Source of the DNA: Octopus vulgaris
Taxonomy: Eukaryota
Length of the DNA stretch: 64,000 nt
NCBI GenBank assembly: GCA_951406725.2
Contig: OX597822.1
Span: forward strand, 96,720,001 to 96,784,000
Direction: 5' to 3'
Positions 14,543 to 58,560 of the stretch are shown here, piece after piece (within the stretch, counting starts at the first letter, position 1; each line of letters starts with the position of its first letter). A program made the translations under genes and the position numbers. The notes beneath the pieces were generated by a model. It was given only the letters and a program-made list of their open reading frames with translations. It searched no databases and was not told the DNA's origin.

Positions 14543-14942
14543 TAGGCGCAGAAGTGGCTGTGTGGTAAGTAGCTTGTTTACCAACCACATGGTTCGAGGT
14601 TCAGTCCCACTGCGTGGCACCTTGGGCAGGTGTCTTCTACTATAACCTCGGGCCGACCAAAGCCTTGTGAGTGGATTTGGTAGACGGAAACTGAAGAAGC
14701 CCGTCGTATATATGTATATATATATGCGTGTGTGTGTTTGTGTGTTTGTGTTTGTCCCCCTAGCATTGCTTGACAACCGATATTGGTGTGTTTATGTCCC
14801 CCGTTAACTTAGCGGTTCGGCAAAAGAGGCCGATAGAATAAGTACTGGGCTTACAAAAGAATAAGTCCCGGGGTCGTGTTGCTCGATTAAAGGCGGTGCT
14901 CCAGCATGGCCGCAGTCAAATGACTGAAACAAGTAAAAGAGT
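14543..14942 (+). mobile_element. SINE-A (tRNA-derived), full length
   Basis: A-box-like GTGGCTGTGTGGT, B-box-like GGTTCAGTCCC, a CCTTGGGCA core, internal (TA)/(TG) and an AAAAGAGT tail. Confidence 0.9.
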
Positions 14943-33826: not shown

Positions 33827-34276
33827 AAGGCGGCGAGCTGGCAGAAACGTTAGCACGCCGGGCGAAACTCGTAGCCGTATTTCATTTGCCGTTACGTTTT
33901 GAGTTCAAATTCCGCCGAAGTTGACTTTGCCTTTCATCCTTTCGGGGTCGATAAATTAAGTACCAGTAACGCACTGGGGCCGATGTAATCGACTTAATCC
34001 CTTCGTCTGTCCTTGTTTGTCCCCTCCATGTTTAGCCCGTTATGGGCAATAAAAAAATAAGAAAAGTTTGCACACCGGGCGAAATGCTTAGCTGTATTTC
34101 GTCTGCCGTTACGTTCCGAGTTCAAATTCCGCCGAGGTCGACTTTGCCTTTCATCCTTTCGGGGTCGATAAATTAAGTACCAGTTGCACACTGGGGCCGA
34201 TGTAATCGACTTGATCCCTTTGTCTGTCCTTGTTTGTCCCCTCTGTGTTTAGCCCCTTGTGGGTAGTAAAGAAATA
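33827..34276 (+). mobile_element. SINE-B tandem dimer with a 15-bp TSD
   Basis: TSD GGTACTACCGTATCA at 33812 and 34277. Confidence 0.9.
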
Positions 34277-34900: not shown

Positions 34901-35130
34901 CATCCAGCCTAACTTTGATGGGTTGTTTATAACACCTTAGACTGTTGTAAACGTTTCAAAAAATAACATTTTAAAAAAAATATTGATCCATATAATTTGC
35001 TTTTAATACCCATATCACTATATATAGTAAAGGTAACTTATTAATATCTATAAAGCTGAAATGCGAAAAAATTGTTTGATTTCTTGTTATTTGTCTCATT
35101 TTGGGATAGGAACGGTTTAAGGGACAAGAA

Positions 35131-35361
35131 GGCGGCGAGCTGGCAGAAACGTTAGCACGCCGAGCGAAATGCGTAGCCGTATTTCGTCTGTCGTTACGCT
35201 GTGAGTTCAAATTCCGCCGAGGTCGACTTTGCCTTTCATCCTTTCGGGGTCGATAAATTAAGTACCAGTTACGCACTGGGGTCGATGTAATCGACTTAAT
35301 ACCTATGTCTGTCCTTGTTTGTCCCATCTATGTTTAGCCCCTTGTAGGTAATAAAGAAATA
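35131..35361 (+). mobile_element. SINE-B
   Basis: Full consensus match. Confidence 0.9.
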
Positions 35362-35968
35362 GGTTATCTTTAATTGTGGGTGTAAAAATTTGGGAGATTT
35401 GGGAAAGGCGGGTAAAAAGGAGGGCAATAAAAAGAACCAGGCAAAGAAGACGAACAAAAGAAGAAAGGGAAAAGGAGACAACACGCTCAAGACAACAACA
35501 CCACCACCAAAACCCGAGCGAAACACGGGTCAAAATAGCTAGTCTATAATATAAAAAGCACTCGTCTCTTTCACAGTGCTACTGCTGATAAAAGCGATGA
35601 GCAGTCTCTCCACAATTCATAGTGACTGTGTGGTAAGCAGGGGTGGCTGTGTGGTAAGTAGCTTCTTACCAGACAGACGTGCTGTTTTTTGCTCCGGCAA
35701 ATGTCACGTGTTAACGTGAATTATTGAACATTTTACGGCAACAGGTAGGACATTTTGGATATTTTGGAACCATAGTGAGGTTTATTGCTTGCCGTTAATA
35801 CTTTTTTGGCATTAATGTTAATTAGTGTTAACACTTTTCTGCGCGTAATAAGCTTCACTTTGCTTCGGATGTATTTGTTCTGCCTGTTGGCGTATTTATT
35901 GTCTCACCTTTTAGTGAGAATTGTGTATTTTGAAGAGGCATAGCCCCTCCTCAAAAATTAATTTGTTC

Positions 35969-36087
35969 GCTTGGATTTACCACGGAGAACCAATTGTGCT
36001 TGGATTTACCACGGAGAACCAATTGTGCTTGGATTTACCACGGAGAACCAATTCTGCTTGGATTTACCACGGAGAACCAAGTGTGCT
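35969..36087 (+). repeat. Four tandem 29-bp repeats in the 5' UTR of copy 1
   Basis: GCTTGGATTTACCACGGAGAACCAATTGT starts at 35969, 35998, 36027 and 36056. There are no spacers. Related TTGGA(T/C)TACC motifs recur in copy 2. Confidence 0.9.
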
Positions 36088-36252
36088 GCAACTAGGAGTA
36101 CCCTGTTTCGTGAGGATTACCAGTTGCAGAACTGTGTTGCCATTATTTGAACTGTCTTCCTTCGTCCCTTTCTCTGTTCTGTCTTTCTGTTCTGTCATTG
36201 TGTTTTTTTCTTATTGGACTTTGAACTTTTAGTTGAACTTCTTTTCAAAATC

Positions 36253-37454
36253 ATGGCAACAAAAGAAACCACTGCTTTGGAATGGGAGGTTGTCCCACCC
36301 AAGCAGTGGATTGAAAGTCTTGAGAAGAGGACGGTGGTCCTACGAACCTATTCTAGGTCGCGTGGAGCTATCGCCCTCTTCGACAGGAGCACCATAGAGA
36401 AAGAGTTGGGGGACCACCTACCAACGACAAAGTTTATTTCTCGGGGAGTAAATTTGCAACGGTGTGGTTGCTGTTTGGTACCCCCGAGGAAGCTAGCAGA
36501 TTTGCTAGCGAGCCACTGGAGGGAGAGGAAATTTTGTTCCTCCCCTCATATTGTGACAGAAAAGTAAAAAGAGTCTGGGTTTGTGGGCTGCCCCCGGGCA
36601 CGGAGGCGGAATGGATCGAGAAGACCATCCGGCGAGGCCTGGGGGATAGCGGACCCAGGCTACTGAGTGTGAAAATGGCTCCCGCGGTCGCCTGGGAGGG
36701 GTCAAAGGCAACTTTGACCCTGTGGACACCGGTGGCCGTGGGAGAAATAAAATTCCCGGACTTCCTGAGAATGGCTGGGCACAGGTACCCGGTGATACTC
36801 GAGGGACGCCCCCCCCCAAGTGTCACCTATGCCTGAAGCCCGGACATATCAAGAGGAATTGTCCCGGGGGCCGTGGTGGTGCCCCGGAGCATGAAGGGGA
36901 AAAGGCGCCCGCCGCCCCCTCATTGGAGGGGGAGACGGTGGAAGTCGTGGAGGAGGTTGCCTCCACGAAAAAGAAAGAGACAGGCGAGCAACAATGGCTG
37001 CTCGCCAAAGAACGCTCAGGTGGCGGAGGGGGATAGCGATCCCCCGTGTCTGGTGACGGAGTCCCCTGGGTCAGCAGTCTCCCCCAAAAGAAGGAGAAAA
37101 AGAAAGAAAGGTCGGGCGGCTGATATCCATGAGCCGCAGACGTTGGCGGGAACTGTGCCGCCAACGAAAGAACTGAACGTATTGGTCCTCTTCTATAGAG
37201 GAGGAGAAATTGAAAAAAAAATGATGGAAGAGTACCACAAGGGAGCTCCTTTAGCCTTCACACAGGACCCCGAATGGCCTCCGCAGATAGCTGTGGAGGC
37301 CGTGGCGTTCTACGTGACGCTTGGGCTAAAGGAGCTCAATGAAGATTATAGCTTGGTCCCGGGCGACGCGAACTCGGAACTTGATTACGTTCTGAGGGAG
37401 GCGTGCATGATGGTGGAGGGCGCGGGCACAGGCTATTTCGAGGACGATATGTAA
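36253..37454 (+). pseudogene. Frameshifted CCHC zinc-knuckle ORF1-like gene, paralog of 42670-43881
   Basis: It can be reassembled from four + ORF-track pieces: MATKE..TVVLRTYSRS / WLLFG..WEGSKATLTLWT..PDFLRMAG / PPKCHLCLKPGHIKRNCP / RKRKR..PEWPPQIA. Frameshifts fall near 36450, in the C-run at ~36810 and in the A-run at ~36970. Confidence 0.85.
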
Positions 37455-37779
37455 TTATTGAACTGTTAGTATTAATAATGGACTGCTAAGTCCAAAAATT
37501 GGAAAATTGAAAGAGGTTTAATACCTCGTTTTGCATTTTTATTAATAATGAACTGCTAAGTCCAAAAATTGGAAAAATTGTAAGAGGTTTAATACCTCGT
37601 TTTGTGTTTATCTTTAAAAAGAACAATGTTTTAGAGAAGCGAAAGTCGGCGGGCGCTTTTTGTCTTCTCCCATCCTTATCATCTGTCTTTCATTATCATT
37701 CACTTCATTAATGTCCTCGTCCAGCCCGCAAAGCTAACTTAATCTGTGTACTGCCTTTATGGCAAATGTTTTGAAATAA

Positions 37780-37921
37780 AGTAACTTGTCTACCAACCGC
37801 ATGGTTCCGGGTTCAGTCTCACTGCGTGGCACCTTGGGCAAGTGTCTTCTACTATAGCCTCGGGCCGACCAAAGCCTTGTGAGTGGATTTGGTAGACGGA
37901 AACTGAAAGAAGCCCGTCGTA

Positions 37922-37954
<33 letters not shown>

Positions 37955-38180
37955 GCGTGTGTGTGTTTGTGTGTCTTTGTTCGTCCCCTAGCATTGCTTG
38001 ACAACCGATGCTGGTGTGTTTATGTCCCCGTTACTTAGCGGTTCGGCAAAAGAGACCGATAGAATAAGTACTGGGCTTACAAAAGAATAAGTCCCGGGGT
38101 CGAGTTGCTCGATTAAAGGCGGTGCTCCGGCATGGCCGCAGTCAAATGACTGAAACAAGTAAAAGAGTAAGAGAGTAAAA
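37780..38180 (+). mobile_element. 3' part of the SINE-A split by ORF1-only copy 1
   Basis: Continues the consensus from AGTA(A/G)CTTG to the AAAAGAGT tail. Confidence 0.9.
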
Positions 38181-38467
38181 GTTGTCCCAAGATGGTTCCC
38201 AGCGTTGATATTCAAGAAGAGGAGTCACAGTGAAATAAGACAGAAAACGCCATGGCGGACATATAACGCCACCCAAAGAGTTCTCTACTCCAGTTCGGTT
38301 ATCATGTCAAATTTCGGTCATAATAACAACTTCATCCGGAATAATTCTGTCTATTGTTATTTTTGAAGTGCAATTTAGTTAATTGCGATTTTAATTGATT
38401 AGTAATTAACTTTAATTCTACTGTTAAATTACATTCAACATTTGATTATCTCAAGAAAATACTGGCG

Positions 38468-38507
<40 letters not shown>

Positions 38508-39280
38508 TAGACAGACAGAGAGACAGAGAGACAGAGAGACAGACAGACAGAAAGAGACGGAGAAATGAAAGGAATGGGGGGGAAGGGAGGAAGAAAGAAG
38601 AGACAGACGAAGAGGAAGGAAATACCAGCAAGAAAGAGAGAGAGAGAGACCGACAGACAGACAGAGACAGACACAGAGAGAGAGAGACAGGCAGACAGAC
38701 AGACAGAGAAACAGACAGAGACAGAGGGGGAATGGAGAGAGAAAGAGAGAGCGAAGGGGGAGACAGATGGAGAAAGAGAGAAAACATCAGTAAGGAAGAG
38801 AGAGACAGAGACACAGGAGATAGAAAGAGACTGAAAAAAGGAAGAGAAAGAAAGAAGGAGAGAGAAAAAGAGACAGAGAGAAGGGGACTGGGAGAGGAAC
38901 GGGTGGGGGGAAAGAGGGGGAAATAGACACTAAAGCGGAAATGTTTGGTTATGGCTATATAAATAGTTACTAATTGGTCTAGTGACATAATGACTAAATA
39001 GACGAGAAGGCAGAGAGGACAATGTGTGTATGTTTGCGTGTAGATATGTGTATATGTGAGTGTGTTATGTCTTTGTATATGTCTATGCGTTTGTATGTTT
39101 TCGTGCGTGCTGTATGTGTTTGTGTAGGCGTCTGTGTGTGGGAGCGCGTGTGTCTTGGGCGCACATTACTGGATCGCAATTAGCCGTAATGCCAACCATC
39201 ACTAATTCCCACCACTAACACCACCACCACCTCCATTACCATCACCAATGTAGCATAATTCATATATTGAAGTAATCTAG

Positions 39281-39353
<73 letters not shown>

Positions 39354-39551
39354 ATCCAAACAAGAAAACACAGAAAAAACACAGCAACGCGAGGACGTGG
39401 AACAATTATTTGACGCTCAGGAAAGAAGGGAATATATATATATGTAAAAAAAAACACGAACACATATTCCTTAAATTCTTTGAATTGTTTCAGTTTTAAA
39501 GATCCGGTCATGCTTGGGCACACACACCCCATACGCACACACATACATACA

Positions 39552-39635
<84 letters not shown>

Positions 39636-39815
39636 TTTCTCTCCTTGTTTTTTCTGTGTCCCTTTGTGTAGAAAAGCGTTGGCTCGAAACGTAAAAGACA
39701 TTTTCTATTCCTGAGCGTTATACTAATACATCTGTTTGTTTTGTACACCACCTGTCTTCGTCTTTTGTTTTTTTTTCGTAAACTTTCCCTAAATGTATGT
39801 ATGTATGTATGTATG

Positions 39816-39870
<55 letters not shown>

Positions 39871-39873
<3 letters not shown>

Positions 39874-40290
39874 ATATTTCGGAATGGTCATATTGCCAGT
39901 TTAGCCAATAAAAACACACGCACTATATATTTGGTGTTATTTTGCTTCAGTGTTATTTATTTTTTACATTAATCTTAATCTTATTACAGGCATCCCCCCA
40001 CATACACACACTAAATAAACATAGACGCACATAGAGATATAAGCATGCGCAAATGAAAACATACAATAGAAATGCAAAATGGCTGACGGTTAGTAAGGAG
40101 AGACACAAATAAGAAAGAAGAAAACAAAGGACCACTGATGCGGTCACAGGAGTGTGACGAAAGAAATCTGGCCGAAATAAGATTAAGATTAATGTAAAAA
40201 ATAAATTACACTGAAGCAAAATAACACCAAATATATAGTGCGTGTGTTTTTATTGGCTAAACTGGCAATATGACCATTCCGAAATATAAC
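39871..40290. repeat. 115-bp inverted repeat next to (TA)n
   Basis: 39871-39985 is the near-perfect reverse complement of 40176-40290. Confidence 0.9.
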
Positions 40291-40348
40291 AATATCTGTT
40301 TCAACACACGACTTCACATAAAAAATCTTGCACAACAAATATTTAAAC

Positions 40349-40387
<39 letters not shown>

Positions 40388-41763
40388 TTTGAAAATCATC
40401 ATCGGACTAATTAACTTCCGTTAAATTTAGCTTCCGTAAATTCAAATCCGTTAACCCCAAAATTTCATAAAAACGTTTAAAAGTTTCTATTGTTTTCAGA
40501 TTGTCTTAGCAAATTTATTACTGTACACGTCATTCTTTCAGCCCTTTTTAGGCCCTTTAGAATTTAAAACTATAAAATCAGCATCTTTTAACTCTAAAGC
40601 GAAAAAAACTATGGTTTTGGGGTTCTAAAGCCCTCAAAAAGGCAAAGAAGCTGAATTTATAGTTTTGGCACTTTGCAACACTTTAGTGTTTAAACTGGCC
40701 AAAAACCATTGTATCTAATTCCTCTACGAAATCTTTTTTAAAAAAGTAAACAAATCGCGTTAGTGAATTCTCGTGGCTTTGAGATAATGTGAGGACTTTT
40801 CTTTCAGAAAGCACAGAACTGGGAGGAAAGAAAAATTAACTGAGGTGGATGTCAACAGAGAAAATATTGACCCGCGAAAAAATAAAGTGGAAAAAATAAA
40901 GGAAGGAAAAAAGTTGGTAAATATTTCGGTGTGAAGGCAAATAGTTGTTACGTAGTAGCCGGTCATGCTAGAAATAGCAACCAAATCGTTCCTTTTCTGG
41001 AAAAAGGAGCCGTTTACGCATGATTTCGGTGTCACATTCATTGAAAGCGTGCAAACTAACCTGAAAAAGAAAAAAAATGACCCGCGAAACAAAACCCCTT
41101 TGGTGGGAAACTTCGTTGTCCTCACCACTCCTCCCACCTTTCTTTTCCGGAAATAAGTGACTTGTGGCGGGTTTGGAGGTCAGATATGTTGAACGCATTC
41201 GAAAAAAAACTGGAAAAAAAATTATTCCACACCGAGCTACGAAATATTTACCGAAAGATAAAAATCTTGTATCGATTATACCCATATTTTAATTAATTCA
41301 AATTAGTGTACCTCATCTTCAAAAGTGGCAAATTTTTTGTCGGTTGCCATCTAGGATAATTTTAGTAACAAATCAAACAGGTAAGATGCATTAAGAATTT
41401 CAATTTTAGCGTTTATCCATGCTTTTACACCTGTTAATTAAATTTACCTGCCCATAAAAGTCAACTATAACCCAGTGGTATATAAAGCACCCTGTGACAA
41501 AATTTTAAATCTGTAAGTCAAAAATTTGCAAAGTTACAAGCAAATAACGAATAAGAATTACATTTGACAGATTAATATGAACATTCAAGATGCTTTTAGG
41601 TAGTTTTTTCTTACACACACACATAACACGGCCTCGCTCGGTTGTGACTACACGTGTGTTACTTTGACATCATTTCATAAAATTTGTTTATAGGGAGAAA
41701 AAGATTGAAAAATATCAATAGATAGGCGCAGGAGTGGCTGTGTGGTAAGTACCTTTCTCACCG

Positions 41764-44189
41764 AACGGACGCGTTTTTTCTTCGCTCCGGCAAATGTCAC
41801 GTTTTAACGTGAATTATTGAACATTTTACGTCAACGGGTGGAACGTTCGAATATTGATGGAAGCCTAGTGAGGTTTATTGCCTGTCGTTAATACTTTTTA
41901 GCATTAACAACGTTATTTAGTGTTAATAATTTTTGCGGGTAATATATTTCACTTTACTTCGAATATTTTTCTACCTGTTGGCGTATTTAAAAGTCTCACC
42001 TTTTAGTGAGAAATTGTGTTTTTTTGAGGAAGGCGTAGCCCCTCCTCAGAAATATTTTTGACTCATTGGAGTACCAATTTTCACACTTGGACTACCACAC
42101 GTGGAATATTGAACTGTTTGGCACAGCAGGTAGGACTGTTTTGAATATTTTTAGAGGCTTGACGAGGTTTATTGCCTGCCATTAATACTTTTTGACGTCA
42201 ACGTTAATTAGCGTTAATAATCTTTTGCGGATAATAGACTTCGCCTTGCTTCGGACATATTTTTTCTGCCTGTTGTATTTAAAATCTCACGTTTTAGTGA
42301 GAAGTGTGTTTTTTGAAGAGGCGTAGCCCACATCAAAAATAATTCGATTCATTGGAGCACCAATTTCGCTTTGGATTACCACACGTGGAATATTGCACCT
42401 TTGGATTACCAGGAGGCACCAAGGATATTCGTGGACTGTTTTTACAAGCACCAGAATTACCAAGGATTGCCGTGACGTTTGGCCTGGACTACCTTTCGGC
42501 CAAAAAAAAATAATTCTTTGCCACATTTGAACTTCTTCCTCTAGCTATCCTTCATTTGAACTCCGAACTGTTTTTATTGTAACTCTCGTTTCCATTTTGT
42601 TTTTTCTTCCCTCTTTCTATTACTTTTGTGTTTTTCCTATTCGAACTTTATTTACATTTTTTGTTAAAAATGGCAAAGGAACTGATTGTTTGGGAGCTAG
42701 AAGCTCCCAAAAAATATGTCAAACAGCTCGAGGATAAGACCGTGGTACTGAGGACTTATTCAAGGTCGCTCAACGCTATCATGGTTTTTCCGAAGGCGAA
42801 AATTATTGAAGAGCTGGCAGACCACATGCCAGCCGTAAAATATATCCAACGGGGAGCCAAATACGCAACGATTTGGTTGCTGTTTGGCTCCCCTAAAGAT
42901 GCTTGCAAGTTTGCAAGCAGGCCCATTGAGGGCAAAGAAATCTTGTTTCTCCCCAGTTACAAGGGAGAAAAATTGACAAGACTGTGGGTCTGCGGCCTGC
43001 CACCCGACATTGAACCCGAGTGGATGGAACACTCTATCCGCCGGGGTCTGGGTGACAGGGACGCAAAAATCCTAAATGTCAATGTACAGCCTGCGGCTGA
43101 TTGGGAGGGGTCTAAGGCAACCTTAACCCTATGGACCCAGTCAGCCAAGAGTCTGGTTTTGCCAGACTTTTTGAGAATGGCCGGGTCCAAGTATCCGGTA
43201 ATGCTTGAGGGACGCCCCCCCAAGTGTCACCTGTGTTTGGAGACCGGCCACATCAAGAAGAGCTGCCCCAGGGACCAGAGTAGGATCCTGGAGCGGCTGA
43301 TATTGGAGCCTCTCCCTGCCTCTTCAATGGAGAGAGAGAAGCAAAGTGAGGAGGGGGAAAAATCCTCCTCCAAAAGAAAGAGAAAGGCGGGGAGCAATGG
43401 CGACCCACCAAAGGACCCGAAAGCTGCGGAAGAGGAGAACCCGGTGCGCACAGCTCCGGAACCTCAGCCTCCCGTGGCCCAGGGCCAGAAGAAAATGAAA
43501 AAGAAAAAGAGAAACGGAGCTTCGCCGGCGGATTGCTACACGCAGACGGCGGTTCCCGAGTATCCCGGGTCCTCTAAGGCGGGTGTGCCGCCTGAGGGAC
43601 TATTCGTGGAAGATTTTGTGCTCCTCTTTTTCAAAGGAAAAAAGGTGGAAAGCACCGTGAAAAAAGTGAGAAAGAGAGGACATTGGGAGGTAATCCGGTC
43701 CTGTGTGGAAAACCCCGAGTGGCCTTCGCAGTTAGCTGCGGGGGTCGTGGGAAGGGCTGATCTACACAGGATCGTGGCTTCCTGCCCGGCAGACTCCTTC
43801 CAGACTATACCACTGGACACCGGCCTGACCAGCGAGTATTGCCTCAATGAGGCAAGAGCAATGGTCGGCCGGGTCACTTAGGCGGTGTAACATCCTTGTA
43901 ACATGTGGAAGAGGAGGTTCGTTGCCTCCTCAAAAATATGTATTTTGATATCATGTGAACATTTTGTAACATTTTGAAGAGGAGGTTTATTGCCTCCTCT
44001 AAAATTTGTAATTTGTAATCATTGTATTAAATGTAATTATTGAACATTGTTTTAGAGAAGCAAAAGTCGGCGGGCGCTTTCTGACTTCTCCCATCACCAT
44101 CTTCATCCACCACCACCATCATCCATTAATGTCTTTGTCCAGCCCGTAGCTACTCTGTGTGCTGCCCTAGTGGCAAATTATTGAAATAA
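41764..44189 (+). mobile_element. ORF1-only non-autonomous non-LTR retroelement (copy 2) inserted in the tRNA-like head of SINE-A
   Basis: The SINE-A head at 41723-41763 stops at ...GGTAAGTACCTTTCTCACC and the SINE resumes at 44190 (AGTAGCTTGCTAACCAACCACATG). Between them lie a ~900 nt 5' UTR with two ~290 bp monomers, one ORF and a 3' UTR ending TTGAAATAA. It is colinear with 35672-37779. Confidence 0.85.
42670..43881 (+). CDS. Intact 403-aa gag-like/LINE ORF1-type protein with a CCHC zinc knuckle
   Basis: ATG at 42670 opens a GC-richer frame containing EGRPPKCHLCLETGHIKKSCP (CX2CX4HX4C), a basic linker (KRKRK, KKMKKKKR) and a C-terminal PEWPSQLA block shared with copy 1. Confidence 0.85.
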   Translation: MAKELIVWELEAPKKYVKQLEDKTVVLRTYSRSLNAIMVFPKAKIIEELADHMPAVKYIQRGAKYATIWLLFGSPKDACKFASRPIEGKEILFLPSYKGEKLTRLWVCGLPPDIEPEWMEHSIRRGLGDRDAKILNVNVQPAADWEGSKATLTLWTQSAKSLVLPDFLRMAGSKYPVMLEGRPPKCHLCLETGHIKKSCPRDQSRILERLILEPLPASSMEREKQSEEGEKSSSKRKRKAGSNGDPPKDPKAAEEENPVRTAPEPQPPVAQGQKKMKKKKRNGASPADCYTQTAVPEYPGSSKAGVPPEGLFVEDFVLLFFKGKKVESTVKKVRKRGHWEVIRSCVENPEWPSQLAAGVVGRADLHRIVASCPADSFQTIPLDTGLTSEYCLNEARAMVGRVT

Positions 44190-44621
44190 AGTAGCTTGCT
44201 AACCAACCACATGATTCCGGGTTCAGTCAAACTGCGTGGCATCTTTCTGATCCGAAACTCCGTTTTCTAGAAACTCTACCCCCGTCCCCTTCCAAACATT
44301 TTGCCTACAGATTTCTTTGTAATCGTAATCTACACCGTTTGAAAGGCATTTGTATAAAATTTCATTAAAAACTACCTATTTTCTAGAAAGTTATGAGGGG
44401 GGAAATGTCGGGTCCTGTGAATTTTCCGAAACTCCTCTCACCAACACCTCGGAAAAATTTTCCAACAAATCTTTACATACACTCAATTTACAGGATATAA
44501 GCAATTAGTTGATGAAAATTTCATTAAAAAGTATCCATTTTTCTGGAAGTTATGAGGCAACAAAATCCGTAGATTATTAAACTGTAGATATGCCTTTTTT
44601 CAATAAAAGTTAACGTTAACG

Positions 44622-44840
44622 CAGTGCTTTTCAAACTTTTTGCTGGAGCAGAACCCCAAGGAAACATTCCACTGGCTCGAGAAACCCCTGTGCAATAATT
44701 TAATAGTCTTATGCACACATAGCTGCACAGGAGAATTAAAAATTACTGCCGATTTTAGCAGTTTTGTAACTTCTTGCGGAACCCCTGGACTGTACTGGCG
44801 GAACCCTAAGGTTCCGCGGAATCCTGATTGAAAACCACTG
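44622..44840. mobile_element. hAT MITE
   Basis: TIRs CAGTGCTTTTCAA / TTGAAAACCACTG with an 8-bp TSD CGTTAACG / CATTAACG. Confidence 0.8.
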
Positions 44841-45380: not shown

Positions 45381-45410
45381 GTATACTCATACAAACAGTA
45401 TTATACATTT

Positions 45411-45826
45411 AAGGCGGAGAGCTGGCAGAAACGTTAGCACGCCGGGCGAAATACTTAGCGGTATTTCGTCTGCGTTACGTTGTGAGTTCAAATTCCGCCG
45501 AGGTCGACTTTACCTTTCATCCTTTCGAGGTCGATAAATTAAGTACCAGTTACGCACTGGGGTCGATGTAATCGACTTAATACCTATGTCTGTCCTTGTT
45601 TGTCCGCTCTGTGTTTAGCCCCTTGTGGGCAGTAAAGAAATAGGTATTTCGTCTGCCGTTACGTTGTGAGTTCAAATTCCGCCGAGGTCGACTTTACCTT
45701 TCATCCTTTCGGGGTCGATAAATTAAGTACCAGTTACGCACTGGGGTCGATGTAATCGACTTAATACCTATGTCTGTCCTTGTTTGTCCCCTCTCTGTTT
45801 AGCCCCTTGTGGGTAGAAAAGAAATA
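45411..45826 (+). mobile_element. SINE-B tandem dimer with a 12-bp TSD
   Basis: TSD AGTATTATACAT at 45397 and 45827, with an internal junction GAAATA|GGTATTTCG at 45643. Confidence 0.9.
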
Positions 45827-54644: not shown

Positions 54645-55148
54645 AAAAAAGACTGGAAAAAAATACCATCAGGCCAAGCTGAGCTCTGCCTGAAAAATAT
54701 TTGGGAGGATGTCAGCTTTGTCTGTCACGCCCCAAAGTTCACCTACATCAAGGTCATATTCCAGTCGGAATCATTAGCACAAAAACACTCAACAGTCCCA
54801 TTAAAAACAGAGGAGTTCACTTTAATTCCCATCTATCTGAGACGGAGAGTGATCCGAATAAAAATAAGTACCATGCCACCAGAAATCGATTTCTGCTGGG
54901 TAGTGAAAGCCATGGTGCTGGAAGATCCTAGAAGCATCCTAGAAATCCCAAAATCCAAAAATGAGAACTGGGTTGGGACAGGGTTGGAAATTCTACTGCA
55001 AGTAAAATCAGAAACTGTAGAGAAAATTGCTGACCTAATATAAATCCCTGGAGGTCAGCATCTGCTGGTGGTTGTGGAAGAAAGAAGGCCGCGATGTTAC
55101 TTCTGTGGCGATTCAGGTCACATCAGAATCTATTGCCCAAAGGATTAA
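54645..55148 (+). pseudogene. Decayed Tx1/L1-like ORF1 with a CCHC knuckle, distant homolog of the ORF1-only element protein
   Basis: One frame reads WEDVSFVCHAPKFTYIKVIFQSESLAQKHSTVPLKTEEFTLIPIYLRRRVIRIKISTMPPEIDFCWV...ADLI*IPGGQHLLVVVEERRPRCYFCGDSGHIRIYCPKD*, which is colinear with the 403-aa protein. Confidence 0.7.
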
Positions 55149-55402: not shown

Positions 55403-57923
55403 TTGCTTTTAGAAAATCGTTATAAAAACATGAAAAGACCATTAACTATGAAAGAAATTGGAGCAGAAGGGCGAAAAAGGCGCGAGTTGGAGGCAGAAGA
55501 ATCTAAGAAGTTGAGCAAAGTCTTCATGTCCCGCTTTGTAAAACATGCCGAGAGTTCTTCAACACCTACCAAGAGGTCGCACGGAGTTCAACCGCGCATT
55601 TTATTGTCCAATACTGCTTCGTGTAACAGTCCACCTCAAACCGATGCAGAAGACAATTGTCTTAAGTCTGACAACGGTGAAAACAAATCTGAAATCAATA
55701 TGGTCGAAAACGCTAACACTGCACTTGAAGAAGTGATCGAACAGCATGACATTGGGCTCCTTAATTTTGACACGAATACCGGGAAGGCGATAGTTTCTGA
55801 ATATTGGAGGATAGAAATAGTTAATCTAGGCTGGAAATATTTTCAGAATTGGGAAAGACCTTTCTTGCCAACAAATAACTGATCAATGAATAAAAACTGG
55901 TTCGAAAGAAAATTGAGAAATGGTCGAGGTGAGGAGATTGTTCGCTCATGGCTACTCTATTTCCTTTCATAAGAAGTCTGCATTATGTTTGTGTTGTCTA
56001 CTTTTTTTCCGATCAGATTATCAATCGTCATTAGAACAGGAAAGCGGATTTTACCAGTGGAAAGCGCCTGAACGAATGTTGGTTCATGAAAACGCTAAGA
56101 ATCATCGAGATAGTTTCACACAATGGAAAGAAATGGAAAGAAATCTTACTAACAAGTGTTTCATAGACGCTGCTCTTAAGTCACAAATCGACCATGAAAA
56201 GCAAAGATGACGTGATGTTTTGACAAGAATTCTACATTGCATTAAATTTCTTGCAACTCAGAATTTGGCTTTGCGAGGTCATAGGGAATCCCTTCTGTGG
56301 ACTGAAGACTCAAATGTTGGTAATTTTCTTGGTTTGCTCAAGCTTTTGGCCACTTTGATCCCGTCATGAAAGAACACCTTCGCTATGTAGAGAGTCACCC
56401 TGGATCGACATCTTACTTTTCACCCGATGTTCAGAATGAATTTATTTACCTCATAGCATCAGCCGTTCGTCATAATCTGCTAAAGAGCATTCGCAGAGCC
56501 AAGTATTATGGTCTCATGTTCGACACAACCCCTGATAGAGTCATAGTGATCAGATTCCGCTGGTAGTAAGGTATGTTGAAGTTGACTTCAAAAGAAAGCG
56601 CGTTCGGGTGAAAGAAACCTCCTCGGGTTCATTCAGGCGGGCGAAAAGGATGCAGAGAGTTTAGTTGATGTAATTTTGAAGTAGTTGGCCGATGACGACA
56701 TGTCATTGGAAGAGTGTATATCCTAGTGCTATGATAATGCAGCTGTGATGACTGGGTACAGAAGCAGGGTCCAGTAGAGAATCAACGAAAAGAACAAATT
56801 GGCCCTATTCGTAAATTGTGACAACCATTCGTTAAACTTAATCGGCCTACCCGCAGCTAAACACGAGTTGGTGGTGTCTGTTTTTTTGGGGTTTTTTTGG
56901 CGCAATCAAAACACTCTAAGTATTCTTTTTTCGTTCAACACACCGCTGGGAAAAATTGAAGGCCATAATGCTTGTGGTTCTTAAGTCGCAATCTGAAACG
57001 AGATGGAATGCCCGGTTGGATGCAGTTAAAAACGTAAGAAACTACCTCGATGAAATTCTACAAGTTCTTCAAGACAACGTCGATGATGAAAACGCGACAA
57101 CTGAGACACGGTACGACGCTAACTTGCTGTTTAACCGTATACTCCATCATGAATTATTCGCATTGCTTGGTTTCTGGAATAGCGTCCTCATACGGATCGA
57201 TCGTGTTCAAAAGAGGCTTCAGGATCCGACAATGAATTTCCATGATGCATCTTTCGACTTGAAAGGTCTCTGCGACTATGTTATTGCTTCAAGAGAAGAT
57301 TTAGTGGCTGATTCACTCGAAGAAGGACTGAGCATTTGCAGAAGGTGGCAAGTTGACGTCAAGCCATGTCGAAGATCTCAACGTGTCATTCACGATGTTT
57401 CCATCAATGCTAAGCTGACAGCAAAAAATAACATGCGAAGAACAATGACTGGGGCGAGGTTTTCCCGGCTACACGATCTTGACACCAAATTTGGCTTCGT
57501 TTTCGATGTCCAGTTTCTGCGTAATGCAATACATTTGGAAACGTCTACAGCAACGATATCGATGCAACCGAACTTTTCGAAGAAATCCTCGATTGCAGAA
57601 TGCTACTTGCAGGTCGCGAACACCTCCAAATATCAAATCCTAAAGAGCTTCTCCAATTTATCGTCCAATATGGAGATGAAAGTGTGTTCCCTAACATTCG
57701 CGTCGCGATACAGATTCTGTTGACAGTTGCTGTTTCCATTGCTGGTTGTGAGAGATCTTTCAGCAAGCTGAACCTGACCATGTCCTTCCTGCGAGCTTCT
57801 ATAACACAAGGAAGACTCCGTGACCTCGCATTGCTTAGCATCGAGCGAGAAGTGGAGAACACCAGTTTCGATTGTATCATTGACAACTTTGCGTCGAAGA
57901 AAGCTAGAAGTGCACTCCTTTAA
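55403..57923 (+). pseudogene. Decayed hAT transposase (ZMYM1-like group)
   Basis: Motifs NLALRGHRES, SYFSPDVQNEFI, YYGLMFDTTPD, VNCDNHSLNL, SETRWNAR and the dimerisation motif VFPNIRVAIQILLTVAVSIAGCERSFSKL..RLRDLALLSIERE, with many stops and frameshifts. Confidence 0.85.
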
Positions 57924-58029: not shown

Positions 58030-58535
58030 ATTGCGTGGGGCGCGCAAATTTGGCCGAGAAGGAAAGGCAGTTTTTCTGTCTGGTGACTATGACGAAAGAG
58101 GTTGTATGGCGGATGCGATTGAAAGGGTTGAAGATAGGTACCTTCCTCTTTGGCCAAGGCTTCATTGACTTTTTCAGGTTCCACCTGAAAAGTGAGACTG
58201 GAGAGGGAGTCGCTGTCACCCGGTAAGTTTGTCGAAAGGTGGGTGAATGTAGCAAGGGTGGCCCGTGTGAATGGGCCTAATCTAAGTATGTGCCTGTAGG
58301 CCGGATGGAGAGAGAAGCCTACCTGAGATGCCTTAGTGTTAGGGGCCCAAACTGGGTAAGGTTGCTTTGGTCACTTCTCGGTATATCTCTCCCTATTTGG
58401 GAATTATATATTGTTGGGTAATTTTCCTGGTTAATTGTTGCTTTGCTGTTTACACATAAAACCTCACTGTCCCTTGTCTGTGTACTGTCTATTATGTTTT
58501 GTGTTCGGTCGTTGCGACCAATAAAGAAAGTATTG
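58030..58535 (+). mobile_element. 3' end of a Tx1/L1-like LINE (ORF2 C-terminus plus 3' UTR)
   Basis: FFCLVTMTKEVVWRMRLKGL...FIDFFRFHLK, then after a shift ERESLSPGKFVERWVNVARV, resembles Tx1-clade ORF2 C-termini. The UTR ends with a GGTCG-TTG-CGACC hairpin followed by AATAAAGAAA. Confidence 0.6.
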
Positions 58536-58560
58536 TTATTATTATTATCATTATTACTAA

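Follow-up and report, generated by a model that had tools for sequence, protein, structure and literature searches.

The window analysed here, a 64,000-nt stretch of the Octopus vulgaris genome (GenBank assembly GCA_951406725.2, contig OX597822.1, positions 96,720,001 to 96,784,000 of the forward strand), contains two copies of a short interspersed element (SINE), here SINE-A, whose heads are interrupted by retroelements of 2.1 and 2.4 kb at one fixed site, GGT/AAGTAG. This raises the question of whether the two retroelements entered that site independently, and with whose enzymes. A sequence-only reading of the window had proposed site-specific insertions of a family that keeps only its first open reading frame (ORF1) and borrows ORF2 in trans. 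Our results indicate that the two units very probably belong to a long-lived, non-autonomous ORF1-only family located at one fixed base of the SINE, likely inserted by the endonuclease and reverse transcriptase (RT) of a co-resident long interspersed element (LINE) of L1/Tx1 type.

The exact 3ʹ-end motif of the elements had 1,072 matches genome-wide, 889 of which were followed directly by an exact AAG(A/T)AG, rather than by random flanking sequence. Reversed patterns used as controls gave 2 matches for the element alone and 0 for the element plus target; the target association is far beyond chance. A protein search of the same genome returned 105 matches, and all of the best 30 ORF1 loci examined ended in ...AAATA followed by AAG(T/A)AG; the same junction was found in 30/30 matches of the 3ʹ untranslated region (UTR) and in 30/30 best ORF2 matches, the three sets overlapping. 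The pooled loci comprised 186 distinct 3ʹ ends, of which 179 were on target; the 7 off target were, by inspection, indel-shifted targets (3) and broken ends (4). Within a stricter set of 183 units, 144 continued into the SINE and 39 elsewhere, 30 of these 39 entering the 5ʹ end of another unit. The first 30 motif matches by position comprised 20 ORF1-only elements and 7 LINEs by type, and 25 were on target with at most one mismatch, one lay in a decayed SINE and one was degenerate. The orientation of the insertions was as fixed as their site. Since a 28-mer from the empty SINE had 89,270 exact matches in the genome against 889 on-target ends, about 1% of the SINE sites are occupied.

A search for an autonomous partner with the same 3ʹ end and target was successful. 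The second element type in the arrays is a 5.45-kb LINE with an ORF1 carrying a CCHC knuckle and an ORF2 with the Pfam domains Exo_endo_phos (PF03372), RVT_1 (PF00078) and zf-RVT (PF13966); the best solved-structure match of ORF2 was L1 ORF2p (E 1e-66), and its frame reached at least 1,133 aa in 14 of the 150 matches listed. Young LINE copies were ~98% identical and mostly full-length, three with both ORFs open, and older subfamilies use the same SINE junction too. LINE and ORF1-only units were interleaved in differing orders, with up to five units per array in one SINE; the direction of array growth was 7 versus 9 among 16 scorable pairs (21 pairs found). The terminal motif TGCC-N5-GGCA...GAAATA was present in 164/183 units, LINE and ORF1-only alike, none of the 183 had poly(A), and AATAAA was formed across the element-SINE junction in 171. 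One ORF1-only 5ʹ type and an older LINE subfamily had a 42-nt 5ʹ end in common (E 6e-11), and nucleotide similarity between ORF1-only units and the LINE did not extend beyond ~40 nt at each end. The LINE belongs to the L1 group. By resemblance it may be placed in the Tx1 clade, as it fits Tx1-type features in its N-terminal apurinic/apyrimidinic endonuclease (APE), RT, C-terminal zinc region and preference for a multicopy repeat. Among the named homologues of its ORF2 the closest came from Argonauta, and no homologue carried a Tx1 name.

The divergence of elements and host SINEs, the truncated copies and the mixed arrays agreed with the proposal that the insertions were independent and site-specific. 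Across 39 young LINEs, divergence was 0.8% in the last 600 nt and 7.2% in the host SINEs; the values for 17 young ORF1-only copies were 2.0% and 8.5%, and 32 empty SINEs differed by 9.5%. The elements were 4-9 times less diverged than their hosts, Mantel tests found no correlation between the two distances (p 0.20 and 0.85), and the hosts of young elements belonged to several diagnostic SINE subtypes. Seventeen 5ʹ-truncated copies (52-2,000 bp, picked by eye from junction tables) followed either an intact head or another unit. The available part of Kojima's paper applies the same truncation test against hitchhiking of SINEU-3 (PMC4494074). Contigs from public runs (4 runs) over 41200-44800, examined for an orthologous empty site, contained head-to-body joints, which came from generic SINE copies (sides <30 nt). 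One run, putatively of RNA but perhaps of DNA, had contigs over 41729-44218 and was not counted as expression.

The ORF1-only units form a family of their own. Among 97 such units with both ends, the window pair included, ORF1 was found in 95 and ORF2 similarity in none, confirming that the units lack RT and endonuclease and that copies do not run on into ORF2; 91/97 measured 1.8-2.7 kb. The family comprised several subfamilies, near-identical young copies among them. Its ORF1 was ~25% identical to that of the LINE (E 2e-19), with the TVV and CCHC columns in common. The median dN/dS (nonsynonymous over synonymous divergence) was 0.22 over residues 1-203 for ten lineage representatives (45 non-independent pairs, dS up to 2.2), a pattern that indicates purifying selection on ORF1. 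N- and C-terminal modules were swapped between lineages, as in loci L018 and L067 with a 98% identical core and ~30% identity in the C-terminal part, and this swapping accounts for the strong C-terminal divergence that had been noted between the two window proteins. A quick ORF1 tree with a midpoint root contained two groups and shows distance, not origin.

At locus L245 (G000:C1:39262053-39265079), a 106-nt unit consisted of the 5ʹ 63 nt and the 3ʹ 43 nt of an ORF1-only element, a non-coding mini derivative at the same SINE site.

The two window insertions are composed as follows.

35621..35655, plus strand: SINE-A head of the first host, the 5ʹ piece with A-box-like TGGCTGTGTGG, ending in GTGGCTGTGTGGT
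~35621-35640: partial short repeat of the SINE-A head, within the first host head
35656..35670, plus strand: 5ʹ target-like copy AAGTAGCTTCTTACC of element 1, the first ~8-9 nt from the target and the remainder from the element lineage
35671..37778, plus strand: body of ORF1-only element 1, 2.1 kb, of mosaic structure with modules known from other subfamilies
~35969-36087: 29-bp tandem repeat in four copies, 5ʹ UTR of element 1
36253..37454, plus strand: ORF1 of element 1, frameshifted and split over three frames
37752..37778, plus strand: 3ʹ terminal motif of element 1, TGCC-N5-GGCA...GAAATA without poly(A), the same as in the autonomous LINE
37779..38172, plus strand: rest of the first host SINE-A (B-box-like GGTTCAGTC, body, (TA)n and 3ʹ half)
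41722..41746, plus strand: SINE-A head of the second host
41747..41762, plus strand: 5ʹ target-like copy AAGTACCTTTCTCACC of element 2
41763..44188, plus strand: body of ORF1-only element 2, 2.4 kb; part of the 5ʹ UTR is duplicated internally
42670..43881, plus strand: open ORF1 of element 2, 403 aa, with two predicted RRM-like domains and a CCHC knuckle at 185-200
Element 2, C-terminal side of the same ORF1: disordered basic linker, then a predicted folded C-terminal domain
44163..44188, plus strand: 3ʹ terminal motif of element 2, TGCC-CTAGT-GGCA...GAAATA
44189..44245, plus strand: rest of the second host SINE-A, cut off after ~57 nt

These coordinates agreed within 1 nt with those first proposed for two units interrupting SINE heads at one site. 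The units were colinear, with identities of 78-83% in the 5ʹ UTR, 68% in the N-terminal half of the ORF and 79% at the 3ʹ end. One CCHC ORF per unit had been described; this held for element 2, but ORF1 of element 1 lay in three frames, and its knuckle motif was disrupted at a poly-C run.

The element 2 protein gave a weak zf-CCHC match, and its sole homologue found among near-length proteins was an uncharacterised Octopus sinensis entry (59%). A profile search with representatives returned 895 matches, none of them named. The AlphaFold model of this ORF1 (mean predicted local distance difference test score 61, 18 sequences) contained two domains resembling RNA recognition motifs (RRMs), and the best Foldseek matches were tandem RRMs (E 3e-4 to 1e-3). 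The VIA Z reached at most 7.6, too low to exclude a common arrangement. In the Atlas, CCHC and ZCCHC3-type RNA-binding clusters appeared at 0.91-0.93. The predicted structure fits an RNA-packaging ORF1p, a function that the protein may have. A link between ZCCHC3 and Tx1 elements is presumed here; a full-text literature search for it found no report.

The imperfect ~15-bp duplication described around the elements is present, but it is not a plain target-site duplication (TSD), because its distal half tracks the element lineage and not the host. Among 64 full-length insertions with one of the commoner 5ʹ types, the 5ʹ and 3ʹ copies were equal over the first 8 nt in 60 and over the whole copy in 24. 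The CTTTCTCA variant occurred in 7/7 full-length copies of element 2's 5ʹ type, and CTTCTTACC in 8/9 of element 1's 5ʹ type (AGACAGA); neither variant was found in the 3ʹ copies. The mutual information of the 5ʹ copy was 1.73 with the 5ʹ type (0.81 when shuffled) and 0.89 with the 3ʹ copy (0.60). In 22 cases the host differed from the commonest sequence; the 5ʹ copy matched the host over 13 nt in 4 of these. The target-like 5ʹ end is inherited with the element in its distal part. The 17 truncated junctions retained 0-16 target nt, often ending in microhomology. Young LINEs lay in the CTAACC host subtype, which matches their own end, in 30 of 39 cases, against ~22 of the first 100 empty SINEs listed (by eye). 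No ribozyme was matched in Rfam in the 6 loci scanned, which gave only microsatellite-driven miRNA matches.

A very young sister of the helper LINE (L281-L291, e.g. G000:C4:93798500-93836500) encodes an ORF2 of 1,143-1,145 aa, 61% identical to that of the helper. In 10/10 of the copies examined that had a long ORF2 frame, (ATT)n came next, and units of ~5.9 kb formed arrays; it is likely a microsatellite-specific family. In the window, an older related LINE 3ʹ fragment (58056-58540, 51% to the end of the helper ORF2) ended in a TTA-type repeat immediately before a SINE.

Three other explanations were weighed. One old insertion in a SINE might have been copied later as a composite of SINE, element and SINE, by retrotransposition or duplication. 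A target-like copy inherited with the element would suit such a history, and the occurrence of old lineages in the old AAGAAG-type SINE and of young ones in the AAGTAG type looks like co-divergence. However, the absence of any correlation between element and host distances, the 4- to 9-fold greater divergence of hosts drawn from several diagnostic subtypes, the truncated copies of 52-2,000 bp behind intact heads, and the differing array orders in which LINE and ORF1-only units alternate make it extremely improbable, and it is already largely refuted. We consider it very improbable that the units are SIDE-like debris, left by internal deletions that recurred recently in the autonomous LINE, with no self-maintaining family. 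Such deleted LINE copies do occur at the same site (L062, L169), but the ORF1s at ~25% identity, the lack of nucleotide similarity beyond the ~40-nt ends, the many subfamilies with dS up to ~2 and dN/dS ~0.22, and the narrow size range of 91/97 units disagree with that origin.

Another, unseen helper, or homology-driven recombination through the target-like ends in place of a sequence-specific endonuclease, is improbable as well. The target homology on the 5ʹ end, the preference of young LINEs for matching CTAACC hosts and the presence of a second young LINE family would fit it. Against it, the 3ʹ junction is exact to one base even in truncated copies that carry no 5ʹ homology, the SINE-targeting LINE agrees with the elements in both 3ʹ motif and junction, and the second family has a different 3ʹ end followed by (ATT)n.

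Insertion of an ORF1-only family at one SINE base by the LINE machinery remained the preferred reading, and several points weigh against it. The match of lineages to SINE subtypes fits a composite, and it would fit just as well if the elements followed whichever SINE was current in their time. There was also a weak correlation of the 5ʹ copy with its 3ʹ counterpart (p 0.001), and in L061 and L191 a private host variant at position 11 had been copied; the split point is therefore not constant. The ORF1 of the sister (ATT)n LINE was about as close to the ORF1-only proteins (28-31% over part), so that the ORF1-only family need not descend from this particular LINE, the helper. The 3ʹ hairpin had no covariation and loop changes only, and folded no better than shuffles. 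Finally, 3 of the 30 position-ordered motif matches lacked both SINE and element body; these may be occasional off-target stubs.

The same junction, the mixed arrays and the overlapping ages suggest that the LINE ORF2p mobilises the ORF1-only elements in trans. The element RNA would make its own ORF1p (RRM-RRM-CCHC) and be packaged by it, and its 3ʹ motif would be recognised by the LINE ORF2p. A bottom-strand nick at GGT/AAG would let reverse transcription begin exactly at GAAATA; because no copy has poly(A), a read-through RNA might pair with the primer at the start. The top strand may be cut ~13-16 nt downstream, and the cDNA end with its self-carried target copy would anneal to the overhang, giving uniform full-length 5ʹ junctions, whereas truncated cDNAs would join through microhomology. 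Insertion would regenerate the target, so that arrays could build up. The SINE may also serve the elements as a safe harbour, as the sequence-only reading had suggested. A wider scheme, which we think rather unlikely, is a three-tier system in which the LINE and its protein-coding passenger prey on the SINE promoter and chase the SINE through time: the target in successive SINE subtypes would shift from AAGAAG/CTTCC through AAGTAG/CTTAC to CTAAC, with the 5ʹ mimic of the elements changing in step and SINE succession being partly an escape from the insertion.

Mammalian HAL1 has a coiled-coil ORF1p and a poly(A) tail and is not site-specific, and HeT-A is telomere-targeted. The octopus family shares with HAL1 a LINE-homologous ORF1 as its only ORF, a family of its own with a selected ORF1, and termini related to those of an autonomous partner. 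Mammalian HAL1 proper was excluded by the CCHC-knuckle ORF1, the absence of poly(A) in all 183 units and a closest named homologue in Octopus. As far as the available parts of two papers describe them, ORF1-only derivatives (HAL1 from mammalian L1, HeT-A from Jockey, Ag-Sponge from CR1; PMC5786205, PMC5753468) likewise consist of 5ʹ UTR, ORF1 and 3ʹ UTR without ORF2 and depend on an autonomous relative, whereas the octopus family is of L1/Tx1 type, bears a CCHC knuckle and is sequence-specific for an interspersed SINE. It works like HAL1 but is not HAL1 itself.

R2 uses a restriction-like endonuclease. In the accessible part of Eickbush 2013 (PMC3774820), R2 whose RNA keeps upstream 28S sequence has uniform 5ʹ junctions, for which annealing of cDNA to the target is proposed; there too the element 5ʹ end carries target sequence alongside uniform 5ʹ junctions. 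Unlike R2, with its HDV-like (hepatitis delta virus) ribozyme and rDNA target, the six octopus loci had no Rfam ribozyme match and the target-like end drifts with lineage.

One of the nearest parallels is given, in the available part of its text, by Kojima 2015 (PMC4494074), with Tx1-Mar LINEs and SINEU passengers in crocodilians and Tx1 within Tx1D of Xenopus. There too an APE-type LINE enters an abundant transposon with non-autonomous passengers at the same target, tandem insertions sandwich the TSD, 5ʹ-truncated copies show independence and sister families sit at microsatellites. The targets there are DNA or long terminal repeat transposons, where the octopus family uses a SINE head, and site preference is looser, at 13-90% over two sites, than the one base seen here. 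The passengers of that system are poly(A)-bearing SINEs with an snRNA head and no coding capacity, in contrast to a selected ORF1 without poly(A).

The host SINE is short, dispersed and of high copy number, with 11 BLAST matches in the window. Its tRNA-like label follows A- and B-box-like motifs seen by eye; ARAGORN called no tRNA and Rfam gave no tRNA match. The accessible text of PMC4758252 cites tRNA-derived SINEs in octopus. The insertion parts A-box-like from B-box-like sequence and would probably silence that SINE copy. In the empty SINE at 14548-14625 of the window, the target lies within an imperfect inverted repeat TGTGGT...ACCACA. The CTTACC subtype has CTT/ACC on both strands ~13 nt apart, which could let one enzyme specificity cut both. 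Neither the SINE target nor the element ends formed hairpins that folded better than shuffles.

A second abundant SINE (33827-34276, 35129-35361 and 45410-45826 in the window, and many other loci) has a 3ʹ tail stretch in common with the SINE-targeting LINE (26/28 nt, E 7e-8). None of 28 of its tails was followed by the target of SINE-A, and one exact junction pattern had 0 genome matches. Several tails enter an internal site of the same SINE, which suggests self-targeting or a tandem structure, and another helper. Elsewhere in the window, a decayed ORF1-like fragment with a CCHC knuckle (54681-55139) was 38% identical to the helper LINE ORF1, and the ORFs at 55430-57923 resemble what we take to be a decayed hAT-type transposase.

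Among the papers listed by full-text searches of a library with few subscription papers, and with Repbase and Dfam outside the scope, none described a LINE specific for a SINE head in octopus or an ORF1-only passenger of one, and the available parts of PMC13269885 and PMC9804982 contained nothing on SINE-targeting. The earlier remark that no description of this combination was known is in line with this search: the combination appears to be new, while each habit is published separately, Tx1 LINEs on transposons with passengers on the one hand and ORF1-only derivatives on the other. What sets it apart is a passenger lineage that codes for protein and a target mimic carried by the element itself.

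With young open copies, ~90,000 dispersed targets and an inbuilt cargo that appears to be mobilised in trans, the octopus elements represent a natural APE retrotransposon system specific to a single base. Why non-autonomous LINEs keep ORF1 becomes testable here, as this ORF1 was selected while diverging to ~25% identity with that of the helper. The manner in which APE LINEs finish the 5ʹ junction becomes testable too, and the mimic carried by the element suggests annealing as in R2, with no known ribozyme involved. The helper and its sister LINE, with 61% ORF2 identity and an (ATT)n target, make a pair for mapping a switch of specificity.

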